Counted from the first letter of the stretch, positions 2,698-43,570 are shown. The stretch is 55,669 nucleotides of DNA from Minisyncoccia bacterium (GCA_050015515.1 JBEKBG010000004.1:1-55669), one strand, 5' to 3'. The notes: generated by a model from the sequence alone, not told the origin. Numbers and translations are program-made.

Positions 2698-3348
2698 ATG
2701 CCTGAAAACGAAAAAAAACCATTAAGTGGTGGTCGCGGGAAATTAATGGTCTGGGTCATTGGGATACTTGTGGTCATCGGTGGTGTCGGTGCCGGATTAT
2801 ATTATTATGTTTCGTCAAAGACGGTCTATATCGATCTGTCGCAGATCCAGGCGCCGCTCATTAATCTTTCGCCGGCAAATTCCGGCGTGCTTCAGGCAAT
2901 GTATGTAAATCCTGGAGACGTGGTAACAGCGAATGAACCGATCGCGCTTGTTGGCAATCAAGTGGTGGAAGCGCAAACCGCCGGCGAGATCGTTACCATC
3001 AACAACAATATTGGCCAGTATATGAATACCATGACCGGACAAGGAACGGTGGCGACGATGATCGACCCGACCCAGCTTCGCGTCGTGGGGAATCTTGACG
3101 AGAACAAGGGATTGGATAATATTCAGGTCGGCGATTCGGCGACATTCACGGTGGACGCCTTCGGTGGGCAAACATTCAAGGGTGTTGTGGACGAGGTGGC
3201 ACCGACATCGGAGCAGAGTAGTGTTGTGTTCAACATTTCCGACCAGCGGCCGACGAACCAGTTCGCCGTCTACGTGCGCTTTGATCCGACGCAATATCCG
3301 CAGCTGAAGAACGGGATGTCGGCAAAGATCTGGGTATATAAGCAGTAA
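2698..3348 (+). CDS. HlyD-family secretion protein (EmrA-like short adaptor)
   Basis: 216 aa. TM anchor, lipoyl-like motif GVLQAMYVNPGDVVTANEPIALV, and a beta-barrel C-terminus. Confidence 0.75.
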   Translation: MPENEKKPLSGGRGKLMVWVIGILVVIGGVGAGLYYYVSSKTVYIDLSQIQAPLINLSPANSGVLQAMYVNPGDVVTANEPIALVGNQVVEAQTAGEIVTINNNIGQYMNTMTGQGTVATMIDPTQLRVVGNLDENKGLDNIQVGDSATFTVDAFGGQTFKGVVDEVAPTSEQSSVVFNISDQRPTNQFAVYVRFDPTQYPQLKNGMSAKIWVYKQ

Positions 3349-3426
3349 AAATGAGAGGCTCCTTCTTTTTACACGCAAATGCCACGTAGGAACGTGAGCG
3401 TGTAAAAAGAAGGAGCCTCTCATTTT
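3348..3426. repeat. 29-bp perfect inverted repeat (long hairpin) starting at the stop codon of the adaptor gene; probable terminator
   Basis: Arms 3348-3376 and 3398-3426 are exact reverse complements. The 21-nt loop contains the mini-hairpin CACGT-AGGA-ACGTG (3383-3396). An A-run precedes and a T-run follows. Confidence 0.8.
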
Positions 3427-3440
3427 TATCAATCCAATAT

Positions 3441-4940
3441 ATGCAAGAAGAAGAAATAAAGACAAAACCGAGCAACGCCCGCTGGTGGGTGTTGGGTACC
3501 GTCATCTTCGGGACTTTTTTAGGCCGCCTTGACCAGACGGTGGTCAATCTTGCGTTGCCGAAGATCATCGGCGATTTTAGTATCAGCGTTTCGGACGCGG
3601 CGTGGATCTCCACGGCGTACATTCTGGCGAACGCGGTGTTCGTCCCGGTGTGGGGAAAGCTCGGAGACACCGCCGGACGAAAGAAAATATACCTGATCGG
3701 ATTCATCGGCTTCATCATCGCGTCAGGATTGTGCGCGGTTGCGTGGAATCTTCCTTCGATGATCGTGTTCCGTATCATCCAGGGGTTTGCCGTGTCTGCG
3801 GATTATCCGACCGCGATGGCGATCATCGCCATCACCTTCACCGACCTCAAAGAACGGGCGCAGGCGCTCGGTATCTGGTCCGCGGCGTTCGCCGTGGCGT
3901 CGGTATTCGGTCCGCTCATCGGGGGTCCGCTTATCGACAATTTCAACTGGCGTGCAGTGTTTTTCATCAATATTCCGCTCGGCATCATCGGGTTGTTCCT
4001 CGCGCTTACCTTTATTGACGAATCGGTGGGGAAGCAGCGCCACGCGCGCTTTGACTGGTGGGGGGCGAGCTCGCTTGCCGCCGCGCTCTTTACCCTCACT
4101 TTTGTATTGGACCAGGGGCAGACGTGGGGATGGTCGTCCGCATCGAGCATCGCGTGCTACATCGGCACCGTCGTGTTTGCCGCCTTGTTCTATATGATCG
4201 AAGTGCGGCAGGAAGAGCCGATCGTAGATTTTAAATTCTTCAAGATTCCCGCGTTCGTAAATACATTAGGGAACAACTTCATTGTGTTCATGGGAATGAT
4301 CGGGAGCATCTTCCTGATCCCCATCTTTGCCGAGACGTTTTTGGGATACGATGCGACGCAAACCGGCTATCTTTTTATCCCGATGGCGGCGGCGATGATG
4401 TTGGCGGCACCGCTCGGCGGCAAGCTAATCGGAAAAATAAAACCGGGATACGTCATCTTCGCAAGCACGTTTGTGGCGGGCATCGGGCTTTATTTCTTTT
4501 CATTCATCGACGCGCGCTCGACCGCGATGGCCATCATGTTCCCACTTGTCATATTGGCATTCGGTCTCGGTTTCGGTATGCCGCAGCGTACCAACATCAT
4601 CGCGCAAGTGGTGCCGAAAGATGAGATCGGCGAAGCGTCGGCGGTACTTGCGCTCGTCAGGAACATCTCCGGTGCGTTCGGCGTCGCCATCTTCAGCACC
4701 ATTCTCGATAACGTCGTCAACTCGAATGTGTTCTCGATCGCACGCCAGAGCGTTTTGAACGGATCGGGTGTGCAATTGATGAAGCAATTCACGGCACTCA
4801 TCATTCTAAAGGCCGAGGTCTCGGGGTATGCAACGGTATTCCTCATCGCGTCGGGGGTTGTTTTCGCCGGGTCGTTCCTCGCATTTTTCATCCACGTACC
4901 AAAGGAGGATATCGGAGAGCACGTAATGATTTTGGACTAG
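3441..4940 (+). CDS. MFS transporter, DHA2 (EmrB/QacA, 14-TMS) drug:H+ antiporter family
   Basis: 499 aa and highly hydrophobic. Motifs LDQTVVNLALP and GKLGDTAGRKK, in operon with two HlyD-type adaptors. Confidence 0.85.
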   Translation: MQEEEIKTKPSNARWWVLGTVIFGTFLGRLDQTVVNLALPKIIGDFSISVSDAAWISTAYILANAVFVPVWGKLGDTAGRKKIYLIGFIGFIIASGLCAVAWNLPSMIVFRIIQGFAVSADYPTAMAIIAITFTDLKERAQALGIWSAAFAVASVFGPLIGGPLIDNFNWRAVFFINIPLGIIGLFLALTFIDESVGKQRHARFDWWGASSLAAALFTLTFVLDQGQTWGWSSASSIACYIGTVVFAALFYMIEVRQEEPIVDFKFFKIPAFVNTLGNNFIVFMGMIGSIFLIPIFAETFLGYDATQTGYLFIPMAAAMMLAAPLGGKLIGKIKPGYVIFASTFVAGIGLYFFSFIDARSTAMAIMFPLVILAFGLGFGMPQRTNIIAQVVPKDEIGEASAVLALVRNISGAFGVAIFSTILDNVVNSNVFSIARQSVLNGSGVQLMKQFTALIILKAEVSGYATVFLIASGVVFAGSFLAFFIHVPKEDIGEHVMILD

Positions 4941-6084: not shown

Positions 6085-6231
6085 ATATTATTATGATAAA
6101 TTGTTTATCGGTAATTTCCAATACCTTGGCTACTTGGGTTAAGTAGCGGAAAGGCGGCTGGTATGCTGCTTAGCTTGAAGTTACGAGCATTGAATGCAAG
6201 ATTCTTGCAGTTCAATCGCAAGGTTGTTTCA

Positions 6232-6636
6232 ATGCAGGGTTCGCAAACGGACGAGCTCGTGCAGTCGGGGAAGATCATTACCCCGTATCCAAAAACCATT
6301 TGCACGCGTCATTTTCCGCTCCGGCCGCGTGATGAACAAGTGTTGGCTGTTATCGTTCCAAATTTGGATGATATCGAAGCGTTAGGGCTTTCTCGCCCGA
6401 CCTTTGAACAGGCGATTCGCTTTGTCTCACAGCTCACACCGGGGGACGCGCATAAAGAGAAGACTCTTGTGTTCCCTTCGGAAAAGCCGTTTTCTGGGGA
6501 CGTTCTGCCCACCATCCCATGCTGGCTCACGCTAGTGTGGAGATCTAAGCGTGAATTATCTGAGCTCTGCCTCTACTTCATTGAACGCGGTGCTTGGCCG
6601 GAGAACACCGAAGTCGTCGCTTTCGCCACCCTGTAG
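6232..6636 (+). CDS. Hypothetical protein
   Basis: ORF 6163-6636. The internal ATG at 6232 (MQGSQTDE...) is the more plausible start. An intrinsic terminator follows. No family recognised. Confidence 0.45.
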   Translation: MQGSQTDELVQSGKIITPYPKTICTRHFPLRPRDEQVLAVIVPNLDDIEALGLSRPTFEQAIRFVSQLTPGDAHKEKTLVFPSEKPFSGDVLPTIPCWLTLVWRSKRELSELCLYFIERGAWPENTEVVAFATL

Positions 6637-9055: not shown

Positions 9056-9218
9056 TGAAAGAAAGCCTGTAGCGCAGTGTAGTAAAGGATAGGTAGGCAA
9101 AGGTCGCAAACCAATCACCATAAAATATATGCATCGCCACGGGGCGAGATAAATAAAAAGAAAAATAGAAATCATGCATAAATAGAGCAAACCCTCCCTC
9201 GCTTTCGACCCGAGTGGA

Positions 9219-9338
9219 GGGTTGCTGTTTCTCGCATGCCTTTTCGGGGACGGGTCGCGGCCTGCTAGCCGCGCCCTAACGCTCGGCACCTTCGTGCCTC
9301 CGCGATTCCCCTCAAAGGCATACGATAAGCAGCAACCC
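9219..9338 (+). repeat. Branched palindromic element, family member E (core 9250-9307)
   Basis: Outer arms 9236-9249 / 9308-9321 enclose two inner hairpins, CGCGGC-ctgcta-GCCGCG and GGCAC-cttc-GTGCC. Alignable with the elements at 29998-30108 and 51086-51256. Confidence 0.6.
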
Positions 9339-12282: not shown

Positions 12283-12945
12283 ATGCATACCATACAACAA
12301 AAATTATTAGCGCTGGCGGAAAAGAAAAACTTGGGTAATTACACCCTGCGGGAGATCGGAGGGTTTGTGGGCGAGACGTCGCCGCAGAAGATAAAACATC
12401 ACCTTCAGCAACTCACAAAGCACGGATTCATCACCATCAATAAAATGGAACACACAATAACAACCATGAAGCAGCAGGGCGCGACGGTAAGCGGGATATT
12501 AAAAAATGCTAAACTTTTATCCATCCCGATCCTTGGCGCGGCGAACGCCGGGCCGGCCATGGTCTTTGCCAATTCCAACATTGAAGGCTATCTTCGCGTG
12601 TCGAGCTCGCTCGTGCCGCGCCAGCGGTCAGCGCATCGCTTGTTCGCGCTCAAAGTGGATGGCCCATCCATGAATATGGCGTACGTTGGTGGCAAAAAGA
12701 TCGACGACGGCGATTACGTCATCATCGACAGCGAGGACCGCGAGGCGGCGAACGACGACATCGTGCTTTCCGTCATCGAAGGCATGGCCAACATCAAAAA
12801 GTATTATGTAGATAAGGAGAATAATCAGATTCTTCTCATGTCCGAATCCACGCACGATTTTCCCGCGATTCATATCCACGAGAATGATGAGTTCGCGATC
12901 AACGGAAAAGTGATTGGGGTGATCAAGACACCGAAGAAGAAATAA
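12283..12945 (+). CDS. LexA-like repressor (N-terminal wHTH plus S24 peptidase domain)
   Basis: 220 aa. KVDGPSMN serine motif and a C-terminal S24 fold pattern (IVLSVIEGMANIKKY). Confidence 0.75.
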   Translation: MHTIQQKLLALAEKKNLGNYTLREIGGFVGETSPQKIKHHLQQLTKHGFITINKMEHTITTMKQQGATVSGILKNAKLLSIPILGAANAGPAMVFANSNIEGYLRVSSSLVPRQRSAHRLFALKVDGPSMNMAYVGGKKIDDGDYVIIDSEDREAANDDIVLSVIEGMANIKKYYVDKENNQILLMSESTHDFPAIHIHENDEFAINGKVIGVIKTPKKK

Positions 12946-13010
12946 ACCTACTGCTGTTTCGCTCCGACGTAAGAACGTCCACTCGCTCAACCGCAATAGG
13001 TTTATTTCTT
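12937..13010. repeat. 14-bp inverted repeat overlapping the LexA-like stop codon, with an internal GACGT-AAGA-ACGTC mini-hairpin
   Basis: Arms 12937-12950 / 12997-13010. The apical mini-hairpin at 12966-12979 is near-identical to the one inside the 3348-3426 hairpin. Confidence 0.6.
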
Positions 13011-19259: not shown

Positions 19260-19330
19260 CTGGGGGGCTTGGAATCGAACCAAGATTCGCCGGTTCAAAG
19301 CCGGATGTCCGACCGTTAGACTACCCCCCA
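19260..19330 (-). tRNA. tRNA-Gln (anticodon UUG)
   Basis: Cloverleaf TGGGGGG-TA-GTCT-AACGGTC-GGAC-A-TCCGG-CTTTGAA-CCGGC-GAAT-CTTGG-TTCGATT-CCAAG-CCCCCCA-G. U1-A72 and G73 are typical of bacterial tRNA-Gln. CCA is not encoded. Confidence 0.9.
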
Positions 19331-24803: not shown

Positions 24804-24922
24804 TTTGTCCTTAGAAATTGTCGAACCCAGCTTTGGATCAACTTTGTTCCAACTTCGTCCCACACTGCACACATCAAAAAAAACACCGATCAAATCGGCG
24901 GTTTTTTTGAAAGTCTTTTTTC

Positions 24923-26042: not shown

Positions 26043-26171
26043 GTGGCGCACAAAAGGGAAGTCGCCTTTGGTGTGATCCTATTTTTCGTGGCGTCGCTCA
26101 GCTTTGCCTTGGGCTATACCGCCAGCCGGCAATTCAACCACGAGCCGATCATTATAGAGAAATGCGCATAG
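26043..26171 (+). CDS. Small membrane protein (42 aa, GTG start, not in ORF track)
   Basis: Peptide VAHKREVAFGVILFFVASLSFALGYTASRQFNHEPIIIEKCA has one TM helix. Followed directly by a strong terminator. Start codon uncertain. Confidence 0.4.
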   Translation: MAHKREVAFGVILFFVASLSFALGYTASRQFNHEPIIIEKCA

Positions 26172-26177
26172 AAAAAA

Positions 26178-26207
26178 CCGCTAGCACAAATATGCTAGCG
26201 GCTTTTT
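26178..26207. terminator. Bidirectional intrinsic terminator
   Basis: CCGCTAGCA/TGCTAGCGG stem flanked by A6 and T5. Sits between convergent genes. Confidence 0.8.
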
Positions 26208-26223
26208 CTTATTCAAACGATTT

Positions 26224-28184: not shown

Positions 28185-29996
28185 ATGGACCTCCGAAACA
28201 TCGCCATCATCGCTCACGTTGACCACGGCAAGACGACCCTCGTCGATGCCTTATTAAAGCAATCTGCGAGCTTTAAGCAAAAAACTGCCGAGAACGGCGA
28301 CCTTATCATGGATTCGAACGAGCTCGAACGCGAACGCGGCATCACGATCTTTTCCAAGAACGCGTCGGTCATCTATAAAGATATAAAGATCAATATCGTG
28401 GACACTCCCGGCCACGCGGACTTCGGCGGTGAGGTGGAGCGCATCATGCGCATGGTGGACGGCGTGCTCCTGCTCGTGGACGCAAAGGAAGGCCCGATGC
28501 CGCAGACGAAGTTTGTTTTGCGCAAAGCGATCCAGGCGGGGCATAAAGTGGTCGTCGTTATCAACAAGATCGACAAGCCGGACGCGCGCGCCGAATGGGC
28601 GCTGAACGCGACGTACGATCTTTTCTTTGAGCTTGATGCGACGGAGGGGCAGATCGATTTTCCGGTCATCTATGCCGCCGCGCGTGAAGGCAAAGCCGGA
28701 CTTACGAACGATCTTTCAAAGATGACCGACATCGTGCCGGTGTTCGAGACGATCATCAATCATCTTCCGCCACCGCAAAAAGGGGAGCTTGAAACACTGC
28801 AGTTCCTTACCGTCAACCTTGCGTACGATAACTATAAAGGCAAAATTGCCATCGGACGACTGTATTCCGGCGAGCTCAAAAAGAACATGACCGTGGCGCA
28901 CATCGATCGCGCGGGCGAGGTCAAAAAGGCGCAGCTTACCTCCGTAATGTTATTTGACGGGCTCGGCAAAGCCGAAGTGGAGACCGCAACGGCGGGGGAC
29001 ATCGTCGCCATTGCGGGCATTTCGGACGTATCCATCGGTGAGACGATCACCGATGTGGAGCATCCGGTGGCGTTGCCGACGATCCACATCGACGAGCCGA
29101 CGATCAAAATGACGTTTTCCGTGAACACGTCGCCGTTCCGCGGCAAAGAAGGAAAGTTTACGACCTCGCGTAACTTGAAGGATCGGCTTGAGAAAGAATT
29201 GGAAACCGACGTTGCGCTCGCGGTAAAGCAGACCGAGGCGAGCGATCGCTGGGAAGTGGCCGCTCGCGGCGAACTTCACCTTGCGATCCTTATCGAAAAG
29301 ATGCGGCGTGAAGGATTTGAACTAGAGGTCTCCAAACCGCAGGTCATCTTTAAAGAGGAGGATGGCAAGAAGACCGAGCCGATCGAACTCGTTTCCATCG
29401 AAGTTCCTGAAGCGTATTCCGGCACGGTGATCGAGATGTTCGGTAAGCGCATGGGCGTCATGAAAAATATGCGCGTGGACGACAAAGGAAATTCATTCAT
29501 GGATTTTGACGCGCCGACGCGCGGACTTATCGGCATCCGTAATAAATTTTTAACCTCAACAAAGGGTACCGGCATCATGAACACGATCTTCCTTGGCTAT
29601 GAGCCATATAAAGGAGATATCACTTCGATCCCGCACGGCTCTATTGTTGCCACGCAGAACGGCATATCAAACAACTATGGCCTTGTGACGGCACAGGGTC
29701 GCGGCACGCTCTTTATCAGCGCCGGCGTGGCGGTCTATGAAGGCATGGTGGTGGGCGCGAATGCAAAAGAGGGGGACGTCCTCGTTCACGTCGCGCGCGA
29801 GAAAGAGCTTACGAACTTCCGTGCAAAGAACGAAGGCCTCGCCGACCAACTTGAAGTGCCGGTCATCATGGGGCTTGAGGACGCGCTTGACTACATCAGC
29901 GATGACGAACTTGTGGAAGTCACCCCGGAGCATGTCCGCATCCGCAAAAAATATCTGAACGAGAACGATAGGAAGAAGGCGGGAAAGAATTGGTAA
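28185..29996 (+). CDS. typA: Translational GTPase TypA/BipA
   Basis: 603 aa. AHVDHGKTT, DTPGHADF and NKID motifs, with BipA-type C-terminal domains. Confidence 0.95.
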   Translation: MDLRNIAIIAHVDHGKTTLVDALLKQSASFKQKTAENGDLIMDSNELERERGITIFSKNASVIYKDIKINIVDTPGHADFGGEVERIMRMVDGVLLLVDAKEGPMPQTKFVLRKAIQAGHKVVVVINKIDKPDARAEWALNATYDLFFELDATEGQIDFPVIYAAAREGKAGLTNDLSKMTDIVPVFETIINHLPPPQKGELETLQFLTVNLAYDNYKGKIAIGRLYSGELKKNMTVAHIDRAGEVKKAQLTSVMLFDGLGKAEVETATAGDIVAIAGISDVSIGETITDVEHPVALPTIHIDEPTIKMTFSVNTSPFRGKEGKFTTSRNLKDRLEKELETDVALAVKQTEASDRWEVAARGELHLAILIEKMRREGFELEVSKPQVIFKEEDGKKTEPIELVSIEVPEAYSGTVIEMFGKRMGVMKNMRVDDKGNSFMDFDAPTRGLIGIRNKFLTSTKGTGIMNTIFLGYEPYKGDITSIPHGSIVATQNGISNNYGLVTAQGRGTLFISAGVAVYEGMVVGANAKEGDVLVHVAREKELTNFRAKNEGLADQLEVPVIMGLEDALDYISDDELVEVTPEHVRIRKKYLNENDRKKAGKNW

Positions 29997-29997
29997 T

Positions 29998-30108
29998 ACA
30001 AAGAGCTCATCTCTTTAAAAGTACGGCGTTGCACTCTGTCGAGTGCGCGCCTCGGCTCTCGCCGCCTTCGCGGCTCAGAGACGCCTTTTAAAGAGATGAG
30101 CTCTTTGT
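29998..30108 (+). repeat. Branched palindromic element, family member A (core 30022-30084)
   Basis: 24-bp perfect arms (29998-30021 / 30085-30108) enclose GCACTC-tgtc-GAGTGC and GCCGC-cttc-GCGGC hairpins. The right arm contains the last 6 codons and the stop of the 30088-30579 gene. Confidence 0.75.
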
Positions 30109-30579
30109 CTTTTTCTTGAGATGAATATATTCGTGCATGATCAGGCCGATAACAACGATGTCAAAGATCGTAATCAACCACAGAAAGAGTGACGGATGGT
30201 TGGTCAGCGAATAGATCTCGTATCCGACGAACACCGTGAAGACGATGGCGGCGGTCGGGTAAGCCCACAGATAATTTTTTAACAACGCCACGGAGAGCGC
30301 TAATTTTATTATGCCGTGCGTAAAAAATAGCAACCCCCAAAACGAATTGCTGGATAGGGAGATAGAATGCCACTGGTTGATGAAGAATTGCCAAAATGCA
30401 TCCCGTGGGCTTTCCGCGATCTCTTCATGGAATACGGAGAAAAGGATCCCATTGATTATGGTATAGCCCGTGAAATAAAAGAAGACACCGCCACATGCCT
30501 CAATGAACCCGTCAACGGCTTTTACGAGAATGCCGATGCGGAACAGCTGGCGGTAGTCTTTTTCTGGCAGTAGCTTCAT
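30088..30579 (-). CDS. DUF2127-like membrane protein
   Basis: 163 aa with 4 TM segments. The N-terminal pattern LFRIGILVKAVDGFIEACGG is typical of DUF2127. Confidence 0.6.
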   Translation of the reverse strand: MKLLPEKDYRQLFRIGILVKAVDGFIEACGGVFFYFTGYTIINGILFSVFHEEIAESPRDAFWQFFINQWHSISLSSNSFWGLLFFTHGIIKLALSVALLKNYLWAYPTAAIVFTVFVGYEIYSLTNHPSLFLWLITIFDIVVIGLIMHEYIHLKKKTKSSSL

Positions 30580-43499: not shown

Positions 43500-43570
43500 C
43501 TGCCGGACTTGGATTCGAACCAAGATTGATGGATTCAGAGTCCATATGCCTACCATTAGCAGATCCGGCA
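43500..43570 (-). tRNA. tRNA-Gln (anticodon CUG)
   Basis: Cloverleaf TGCCGGA-TC-TGCT-AATGGTA-GGCA-T-ATGGA-CTCTGAA-TCCAT-CAAT-CTTGG-TTCGAAT-CCAAG-TCCGGCA-G. Has U1-A72 and G73. CCA is not encoded. Confidence 0.9.

Follow-up and report, generated by a model that had tools for sequence, protein, structure and literature searches.

What kind of element keeps a common centre at several loci of one genome while the long stem enclosing that centre differs in sequence from locus to locus? The question was raised by a 55,669-nucleotide (nt) stretch of DNA from a Minisyncoccia bacterium (GCA_050015515.1 JBEKBG010000004.1:1-55669), the whole of which is called the window below, and by three branched palindromes that a first-pass annotation had noticed in it, here termed members A, B and E. 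We found that the three belong to a multi-copy repeat family in which the core covaries and the arms of the outer stem go on changing in concert after speciation. The single architecture that the annotation had described was confirmed at all three positions, and the minimum-free-energy folds of A, B and E were alike, each consisting of an outer stem and two inner hairpins. Member A has 24/24 paired arms (29998-30021 with 30085-30108) around 63 nt, and its pairing is 26/27 when the arms are widened to 29995-30111. Member B has 31/31 paired arms (51112-51142 with 51204-51234) around 61 nt. Both arm lengths had been read correctly in the annotation, as had the absence of G:U pairs from the outer arms of A and B, but the 12/14 given there for the stem of E was too low, the real arms (inverted repeat I3, 9219-9250 with 9307-9338) being 32 nt long at 84%.

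To define the family, we trained a covariance model on 38 metagenome copies together with A and B, leaving E out of training. In the window the model scored A at 97 bits, B at 91.4 bits (minus strand) and E at 64.9 bits (E=1e-13), the best non-member reaching 13.7 bits, and the window was found to hold exactly these three copies (3 per 55.7 kb). A pattern scan of metagenome contigs with CGCCTCGGCTCTCNNNNCCTTCG matched 86 stretches, about 45 of which carried the entire core in gapless alignment, each with its own palindromic arms. The covariance search of the fetched contigs, the kind of search that the annotation had proposed, returned 62 matches, diverged subtypes among them; at least 56 of these are distinct copies, on 47 contigs. 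The model also matched a diverged copy in a Colwellbacteria metagenome-assembled genome (MAG; L092, the L numbers being our handles for stretches outside the window) and, in close relatives, a full copy (L175) and a half copy (L174). A, B and E are thus members of a real family, and the idea of a conserved, covarying core within unrelated arms was borne out. Two subtypes, the A/B type and the E type, occur side by side in the same genomes (the window and L046) and each is kept across genomes, core E having near-identical copies at L006 2494-2571 and L046 1129-1204.

The host of the family was assigned from protein identities. BipA of the window is 73-75% identical to that of Jorgensen-, Colwell- and Paceibacterota MAGs, and the cluster names concur, pointing to Candidatus Paceibacterota within the candidate phyla radiation (CPR/Patescibacteria). 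The window itself derives from a metagenome, and a 6.7-kb JGI contig was identical to window sequence. The annotation had not recognised the family, and a search of the whole window against Rfam 15 at gathering score returned three tRNAs only; at E<=10 the A region gave only far-sub-threshold matches to miRNA precursors, caused by the long stem. Neither GTDB representative genomes nor IMG/VR viral contigs contained a match to a strict core pattern (0 in each), member A had no blastn match among phages or plasmids in the collections searched, and a literature search for a palindromic or structured repeat of this kind in CPR found no description. The family is apparently undescribed.

We then examined the core. 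Across copies it is 60-63 nt long, and as a single strand it folds into a three-way junction with hairpins P2 and P3. The nucleotides of the junction, bulge and loops are conserved, and the stems covary freely. The consensus reads P1, the variable stem; J12, UAC; P2a, GGCG/CGCC; a bulged U; P2b, 6-7 bp with loop UGCU; J23, U; P3a, CG.CUC/GAG.A.CG with the internal loop UC/UCC; P3b, 5 bp with loop CUUC; and J31, C. In member A the parts lie as follows, all on the plus strand.

30022-30084: core of member A, a 63-nt three-way junction, from the fold and the covariance model (97 bits)
30022-24: J12, TAC
30025-28 with 30048-51: P2a
30029: bulged T
30030-36 with 30041-47: P2b, loop TGTC at 30037-40
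30052: J23, T
30053-54 and 30056-58 with 30078-80 and 30082-83: P3a
30061-65 with 30070-74: P3b, loop CTTC at 30066-69
30084: J31, C

In an alignment of 55 distinct rows (A3) that was fitted to the proposed structure, 93.7% of cells were paired against 79% in shuffles, and 0/500 shuffles reached the observed values; RNAalifold run on an unfitted alignment gave the same P1, P2 and P3b. Changes on both sides were seen in 22/30 pairs of these rows, which upheld the earlier statement that the inner stems vary in sequence yet keep their pairing, and sliding the partners by 1-3 columns lowered the pairing to 31-51%. Covariation supports P2a, P2b, P3a and P3b. Within P2 and P3, about 127 double changes went from one Watson-Crick pair to another, against 4 wobble cells. 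The first search had fixed 19 core bases, and the variants found with the model show the true range; covariation is visible even in the helices fixed by the pattern because the diverged copies supply it. P2a occurs as GGCG/CGCC, GGG/CCC, GTG/CAC and GCG/CGC, and as GGA/UCC in L092, while P3a occurs as CUC/GAG, CGC/GCG, CAC/GUG, UUC/GAA and AUC/GAU with the outer pairs CG/CG, AA/UU or UA/UA. The favoured register of P3a was 98.9% paired with 4/5 pairs covarying. The alternative registers CTCGG/CCGAG and, from RNAalifold, GGC+TCTC/GAGA+GCC were worse (91% paired, 1 covarying pair) and were rejected. In the tuf-linked orthologs L046 and L086, whose EF-Tu is 85% identical, the cores differ in P2b alone, by five fully compensated pairs. 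This pair shows strong constraint on the core.

The arms behave otherwise. Perfect arm runs were 15-38 bp, and the median arm was about 35 nt when a few mismatches were allowed, whereas among plain hairpins of the same 384 kb, with loops of 3-12 nt, the median perfect arm was 11 bp and 90% were at most 15 bp. The outer arms are unrelated between loci. The annotation had called this the opposite of a repetitive extragenic palindromic (REP) element or a miniature inverted-repeat transposable element (MITE), which is true of the outer arms but not of the whole stem: the inner ~10 bp are semi-conserved (YTTTTNNRGG / CCYNNAAAAR), and one subfamily shares about 21 nt of arm (AAAACACCCCTCGTCTACGGG...) among non-orthologous copies after an rpoD-like gene (L038), fusA (L062) and tuf (L046/L086). 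Since three non-orthologous loci share these 21 nt, arms are sometimes part of the repeated unit, and the stem can on occasion move together with the core, or undergo conversion from one copy to another; the arms of the fusA ortholog L029 are unlike those of L062. Mismatches in the arms comprised 48 G.T and 64 A.C, so that no excess of G.T was seen, and an asymmetry between G:U and A:C as an RNA-strand signature was looked for in the arms and rejected on these counts. The arms of the three members and the features that flank them are the following.

28185-29996, plus strand: bipA/typA gene, in the same direction as core A and ending just 5' of A's 5' arm
29995-30021, plus strand: 5' arm of P1 of member A (inverted repeat I4, 27 nt, 96%)
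30085-30111, plus strand: 3' arm of P1 of member A, with T-rich sequence beyond
30088-30579, minus strand: DUF2127 membrane protein gene, convergent with bipA and ending ...KKKTKSSSL and stop, its last 6 codons within A's 3' arm
51002-51033, plus strand: ordinary intrinsic terminator (GCGGCCT..AGGCCGC followed by TTTTTCTTT) of the open reading frame (ORF) upstream of B, read from sequence
51071-51104, no strand assigned: outer imperfect extension of the B palindrome, partner 51238-51271 (I5, 74%), a decayed mirror of the rpsB -35 region
51112-51142, minus strand: arm of member B distal to rpsB, the 3' arm in core orientation (31/31, inverted repeat I2)
51143-51203, minus strand: core of member B, 61 nt, antisense to both neighbour genes (91.4 bits)
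51204-51234, minus strand: arm of member B adjoining the rpsB promoter, which is the 5' arm when the core is read forward; relatives' empty sites also have its outer end, ..GCC
51244-51271, plus strand: rpsB promoter (TTGACT, 16-nt spacer, TATACT), inside the outer right part of the B palindrome and conserved in five genomes
9219-9248, plus strand: imperfect 5' arm of member E (I3)
9249-9308, plus strand: core of member E, second subtype, with P2a GGG/CCC and P3a AA-CGC/GCG-A-TT (64.9 bits)
9309-9338, plus strand: imperfect 3' arm of member E (I3)

When orthologous copies were compared, the two arms were found to have changed together. Upstream of rpsB, member B and L175 show 4 arm differences, all A:T to G:C and all mirrored, with 0 unmirrored in 30 bp, and two more compensated changes in P3b. 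L012 and L073 differ by at least 4 mirrored substitutions and a mirrored 2-nt length change, and L063 and L075 by two mirrored changes, the mirrored changes of copies with bulged stems having been read by eye. In the hisS copies the last codons (...KKRQK and stop) lie inside the 5' arm, and the stop, TAA in L040 and TAG in L049, is mirrored in each copy's own 3' arm. Five orthologous copies at one promoter (L016, L025, L022, L044 and L038:123) have inner arms that cannot be aligned with one another and are each internally paired; on the far side stands a mirror image of the promoter spacer, which is particular to each lineage, and even of the -10 region. A decaying copy (L015) and shortened copies (L083, L174 and L006:9062) were also found, and decaying copies such as L015 show that the arms degrade once copying stops. 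Because the changes are mirrored, the arms perfect and wobble bias absent, which independent compensatory selection would not give, recurrent copying between the arms at the DNA level is called for. Template switching within inverted repeats, as in the quasipalindrome correction models of Ripley and Lovett, is documented to make arms uniform, to lengthen them and to yield compensatory changes in a single step (PMC8794818, PMC13100816, PMC7202029), and it would explain the mirrored substitutions, the perfect arms, their outward growth and the lack of G:U intermediates. It is a general mutational process; here it is apparently tied to conserved apex modules and directional relative to the core. 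At L010 3558-3716 an 11-nt sequence, ATTCTCGTATT, is present twice, once in the far arm and once a short way past the bipA -10 box, and the near arm holds its inverse; by a rough estimate ~0.04 would be expected by chance, so the recurrence is a hint that native DNA close by was the source of arm sequence. At L028 797-887 the 5' flank and arm are as in L059 and the 3' arm and flank as in L068, so that L028 either arose by recombination in the core that the two copies have in common or is an assembly chimera.

The position of the copies relative to genes gave a second regularity. Counting ORFs of at least 150 amino acids (aa) only, we found that 22 copies have a co-oriented gene ending at most 32 nt upstream of the region covered by the model, with the stop inside the 5' arm (median distance 16.5 nt), and that 3 copies, 2 of them convergent pairs, have a gene ending equally close on the 3' side. 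Within 150 nt the gene ends were 26 on the 5' side against 11 on the 3' side. The stop codon of the co-oriented gene is typically ~25 nt from the junction, in the 5' arm; in member A the perfect part of the 5' arm starts at 29998, 1-2 nt past the bipA stop codon (29994-29996). Copies that face opposite ways on one contig (L063, L042) are each sense to their own nearest gene. In the antisense class, to which the five-locus promoter group belongs together with window B, L175 and L010, the arm that is 5' with respect to the core lies against the next gene's promoter or contains it. Altogether the functional sequence is 5' of the core and its mirror 3' in ~29 cases, against at most 3 of the opposite arrangement. 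Two explanations fit this polarity, namely selection or insertion in the sense orientation and one-way copying in which the 5' arm is the template for the 3' arm. The copy lies on the 3' side of the core in nearly every case, as expected if the flank is copied directionally in inverted form, and in B the promoter-side arm is native and the far arm the copy, since ..GCC just before the rpsB -35 box is already present at the empty sites L176 and L178.

In base composition the 5' arm is rich in A and the 3' arm in T. The enrichment is moderate: between 16 and 30 nt from the junction the right arm has T at 0.35 and A at 0.18-0.22, and the left arm is its mirror image. Plain bidirectional terminators with the same A/T-tract symmetry were found in the window (26170-26209 and 24874-24910) and after bipA in relatives; the elements take up this niche as well. 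That orientation follows the upstream gene favours a transcribed role. Replication strand was also considered as the cause of orientation, by way of GC skew in the window, and was rejected: the skew merely goes with the direction of the genes, and B is out of line with it. In cumulative form the skew turns at ~36 kb and ~42-50 kb, with the blocks of gene orientation (plus to 34 kb, minus to 46 kb, plus after); it tracks the direction of transcription and shows no replication origin or terminus.

Comparison with relatives revealed that copies come and go at fixed sites. Between bipA and the DUF2127 gene the window carries a 117-nt element and a filled gap of 91 nt, against 12-25 nt at empty sites. 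In L170/L171 (BipA 88% identical) the gap is 12 nt and holds no hairpin; in L168/L169 (BipA 91%) it is 25 nt and holds a plain 12-bp A/T-tract hairpin with the DUF2127 stop already in its arm. The core is missing from these relatives. The annotation was right that the DUF2127 stop and the six codons before it lie in A's right arm (ORF 30088-30579, minus strand), the 3' arm coding T-K-S-S-S-L and stop (30088-30090) on that strand. The further claim that A's left arm is an inverted copy of this gene's 3' end was not supported. The tails of DUF2127 orthologs differ (KKKTKSSSL, RRKIKNA, ALKNHR), so that the arm-encoded tail is not a conserved gene end and the direction of copying at A cannot be read from it; and since the core-less hairpin already holds the stop, an arm that overlaps the gene end needs no element. 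A diverged copy (55 bits) follows bipA in L092, and other relatives have ordinary terminators there. After bipA in another Patescibacteria MAG (L093 ~6205-6270) an unrelated centre of 28 nt is enclosed by a perfect palindrome of 19 bp (CCCCGCACCTTTGGAAGAT), a hairpin with long arms that lacks this core.

The copy upstream of rpsB is present in the window and in L175, half-deleted in L174 and absent from L176-L184. In L174 (5287-5356) the P2 half of the core and the promoter-side arm are kept, the P3 half and the far arm are gone, and the stop of a glycosyltransferase gene abuts the remnant. In L177 (7873-9246) the DNA just upstream of rpsB holds an 89-aa shortened IS200-like Y1 fragment and an IS3-type element (HTH_Tnp_1 and rve), and no copy of the family. 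L010 is a near relative of the window, with neighbour proteins 96% and 88% identical; its bipA promoter bears a copy and that of the window does not. A further ~230 kb of syntenic DNA from close relatives yielded no copy. The neighbours of copies are housekeeping genes, and the sites lie in very compact intergenic DNA.

Taking these results together, we tentatively favour, at a little less than an even chance, a multi-copy structured element at terminator positions whose stem is kept perfect by template switching and whose apex is a putative recognition module. The long hairpin would serve the upstream transcript as a 3'-end structure or terminator that works in both directions, and the apex may be recognised by a putative protein or RNase, a factor that may also underlie spread between hairpin sites. 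The arms would be built, lengthened and kept Watson-Crick by intra-palindrome template switching during DNA synthesis, with the 3'-side arm renewed again and again on the template of the 5'-side arm. The data show the family with its fold and covariation, arms that are specific to each site and evolve in mirror image, their polarity, and patchy gain and loss. From these patterns we infer that the structure terminates transcripts, that the core is transcribed, that a factor recognises it and that the arms are copied by template switching.

Several points weigh against this explanation. About 1/4 to 1/3 of the copies are antisense to both neighbours or stand beside promoters (window B, L175, L010, the L016 group and L049:10368), and for such copies a role at an RNA 3' end is impossible. 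B lies behind a gene that already has its own ordinary terminator (51002-51033), so that B is dispensable for terminating it, which shows that a terminator role is not universal; the ORF concerned is poorly conserved. A simple terminator scanner made no call at A, which it misses because the loop exceeds 8 nt. Individual copies are dispensable, given the empty sites with 88-91% identical BipA and S2 and the half-deleted L174. Ascertainment with a fixed core pattern inflates the apparent conservation of the core, which is partly due to the 19 bases fixed in the first search. Finally, a functional RNA would not usually be so nearly free of G:U, although one-step template-switch changes could explain it.

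The strongest rival, possible though on balance unlikely, is a purely selfish DNA-level mobile repeat, similar to REP elements or palindrome-associated transposable elements (PATEs), in which the core hairpins would be single-stranded DNA sites for a nuclease or for a transposase of the Y1 type or the REP-associated tyrosine transposase (RAYT) type; it would home into hairpin or terminator DNA, the terminator effect being incidental. The copies are multiple and extragenic, gain and loss among close relatives is patchy, and a copy following bipA is found in two distant lineages and not in closer ones. The 21 nt of arm common to the rpoD-like, fusA and tuf loci but not to the fusA ortholog L029, the chimeric or shortened copies L028, L083 and L174, covariation by Watson-Crick changes only, and two more apex families of like architecture also agree with it. 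Against it, no transposase was seen beside or between copies in the gene tables of family-bearing loci, where the neighbours are housekeeping genes. The sole Y1_Tnp fragment, that of L177, lies in a copy-free stretch, and tblastn with it found no homolog in ~384 kb of family-bearing DNA; as a lead it was dropped, being a shortened IS200-like fragment that is not in family-bearing loci. A RAYT-like gene between inverted copy pairs (L049, L070) was likewise sought and rejected, translation reading giving only NUDIX-like, GNAT-like acetyltransferase and coiled-coil proteins. No target-site duplication was seen, as a direct repeat at the arm boundaries, by inspection of the few copies L038, L062 and L046, and no loop remnants stand beside the core. 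Furthermore, a copy's orientation goes with that of the gene beside it, also where copies on a single contig face opposite ways, which a replication-strand-specific single-stranded DNA transposon would not predict. The selfish reading and the structured terminator element favoured above are not mutually exclusive, REP elements being both selfish and terminator or mRNA-end structures.

Rather unlikely, in our estimate, is a bolder variant in which the conserved apex is the handle of a putative machinery that seeds long perfect palindromes and recopies them in one direction, the three-way junction and at least two other apex modules of these genomes then making up a new class of palindrome-seeding element, or in which the locus is a bacterial counterpart of a primary microRNA (pri-miRNA) locus, with a conserved small RNA cut out of a sequence-free double-stranded stem at many mRNA 3' ends.

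The model put forward in the first-pass annotation, taken literally, holds that insertion of the core duplicates the flank in inverted orientation in one event, by fold-back or hairpin-primed synthesis, and that the arms are the frozen record of it. The arms do consist of local sequence (stops, promoter spacer, and the ..GCC before the rpsB -35 box that is also at empty sites), the polarity of ~29 against at most 3 places the functional side 5' and the mirror 3', and filled sites are longer by core and arms (91 nt against 12-25 nt). A copying event at the DNA level is thus retained from that model, on the Watson-Crick-only pairing, the mirrored changes and the arms that mirror local stops and promoters, as is an inverted copy of the flank on one particular side. 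What fails is the single insertion-coupled event: the mirrored changes postdate the split of lineages, so the copying is recurrent and concerted change of the arms has continued since speciation; arms degrade when copying ceases, as decaying copies like L015 show; arms are common to non-orthologous loci; and a plain hairpin already lies over the DUF2127 stop in a core-less relative. We consider the literal model improbable.

More doubtful still is a small stable RNA released from mRNA 3' ends, with P1 as an RNase III processing stem, as in rRNA precursors and pri-miRNAs, and with many loci feeding one pool of ~65-85-nt RNA. The highly conserved core within a long, sequence-free closing stem of at least 20 bp would suit it, as would sense copies directly after genes of which several are likely to be highly expressed (tuf, fusA, hisS, bipA), and two subtypes kept together in the same genomes. 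It is opposed by the antisense and promoter-side copies maintained across species (B, L175) and by the lack of an Rfam relative; moreover, RNase III needs no perfect Watson-Crick stem, so that the avoidance of G:U and the mirrored promoter sequence would be left over. Chance likeness of three ordinary terminator hairpins is negligible, given the 64.9 bits (E=1e-13) of E against a model built without it, the next window score of 13.7 bits, and the 56 distinct copies elsewhere with their covariation.

We compared the family with known systems. REP elements and the bacterial interspersed mosaic elements (BIMEs) of proteobacteria are likewise short, multi-copy, extragenic hairpin repeats after gene ends and between convergent genes, and are thought to act as folded single strands and to affect termination or mRNA stability. 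The REP stem itself is conserved, however, whereas here the stem is unique to each locus and the branched apex conserved; the host here is CPR; no RAYT gene was found in ~384 kb of family-bearing DNA (tblastn with one Y1 fragment, and gene tables); and no GTAG-type 5' motif was noticed, no search having been aimed at it. MITEs and PATEs (Correia, RPE, IS200/IS605 derivatives) resemble the family in being ~80-170 nt, non-coding, foldable and patchy, and one of our subfamilies shares arms; they have conserved terminal inverted repeats, in contrast to the mostly unrelated arms here, where no target-site duplication and no autonomous parent were seen. Compared with PATEs derived from IS200/IS605, the present elements have two adjacent hairpins, a 5' flank that ends only in RG/GG, no fixed target and no TnpA in the ~384 kb searched. 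Bidirectional intrinsic terminators share the place after or over stop codons and the A-tract/stem/T-tract symmetry, with plain versions between bipA and the DUF2127 gene in relatives, but the stem here is 2-3 times longer, the loop is a conserved 63-nt junction (in A) and the palindrome reaches into promoters. Integron attC sites are built the opposite way, with conserved outer R''/R' and L''/L' boxes and a variable centre. The CUGANGA ... GAAA motifs of hammerhead and other three-way-junction ribozymes are not at the junction here (UAC, U, C), and there was no Rfam match. The GC clusters or double-hairpin elements of fungal mitochondria are small GC-rich mobile modules in compact, AT-richer intergenic DNA, and are alike by description, in hosts other than CPR; we know of no long locus-specific closing stem described for them.

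The family is not alone in its architecture. A second family has a 23-nt apex, AAATGCCACGTAGGAACGTGAC(C), with a 5-bp hairpin and the loop AGGA within unrelated perfect arms of ~30 nt; its copies lie at window 3346-3428 (31/31 arms), L049 ~4349-4426 and L050 ~3829-3908, with a diverged copy at window 12937-13010 (GACGTAAGAACGTC). The arms of this second family begin at or hold the stop of the co-oriented upstream gene (HlyD-like and LexA-like genes in the window). A possible third family has the inner palindrome CTATGCCTTAAnTGCAAA-TnT-TTTGCAnTTAAGGCATAG in perfect palindromes of 27-28 bp whose outer arms differ (L029 2847-2905 and L017 5644-5700). As there are at least two further families with a conserved centre and unrelated arms, a general process in this lineage is suggested, rather than the peculiarity of one element.

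CPR/Patescibacteria make up a large uncultured share of bacterial diversity and have tiny, compact genomes, and little is known of their non-coding elements, terminators and mobile DNA. The family offers a clean natural case of long inverted repeats in concerted evolution, mirrored, Watson-Crick only and apparently directional, around a constrained branched core, in which the template-switch model of hairpin evolution is testable at dozens of orthologous loci; the conserved apex, in turn, predicts a binding partner, either a nuclease or transposase or an RNA-binding factor. The elements are also candidate terminators missed by standard scanners, and their arms make gene callers lengthen ORFs. 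In the window S2 was called as a 279-aa ORF from 51216, homologs being annotated at 285-292 aa, instead of ~258 aa; this overextension is an annotation artefact from the B arm. The rpsB promoter ends 7 nt before the S2 ATG (51279), and the S2 mRNA looks leaderless (window 51244-51281). At the other end of the window a small separate hairpin (AACCCTCC..TCG / CGA..GGAGGGTT, 9196-9232) overlaps the start of the 5' arm of E. The three tRNA genes lie at 19260-19330 and 43500-43570 on the minus strand, both without an encoded CCA in the Rfam match, and at 52890-52973 on the plus strand.

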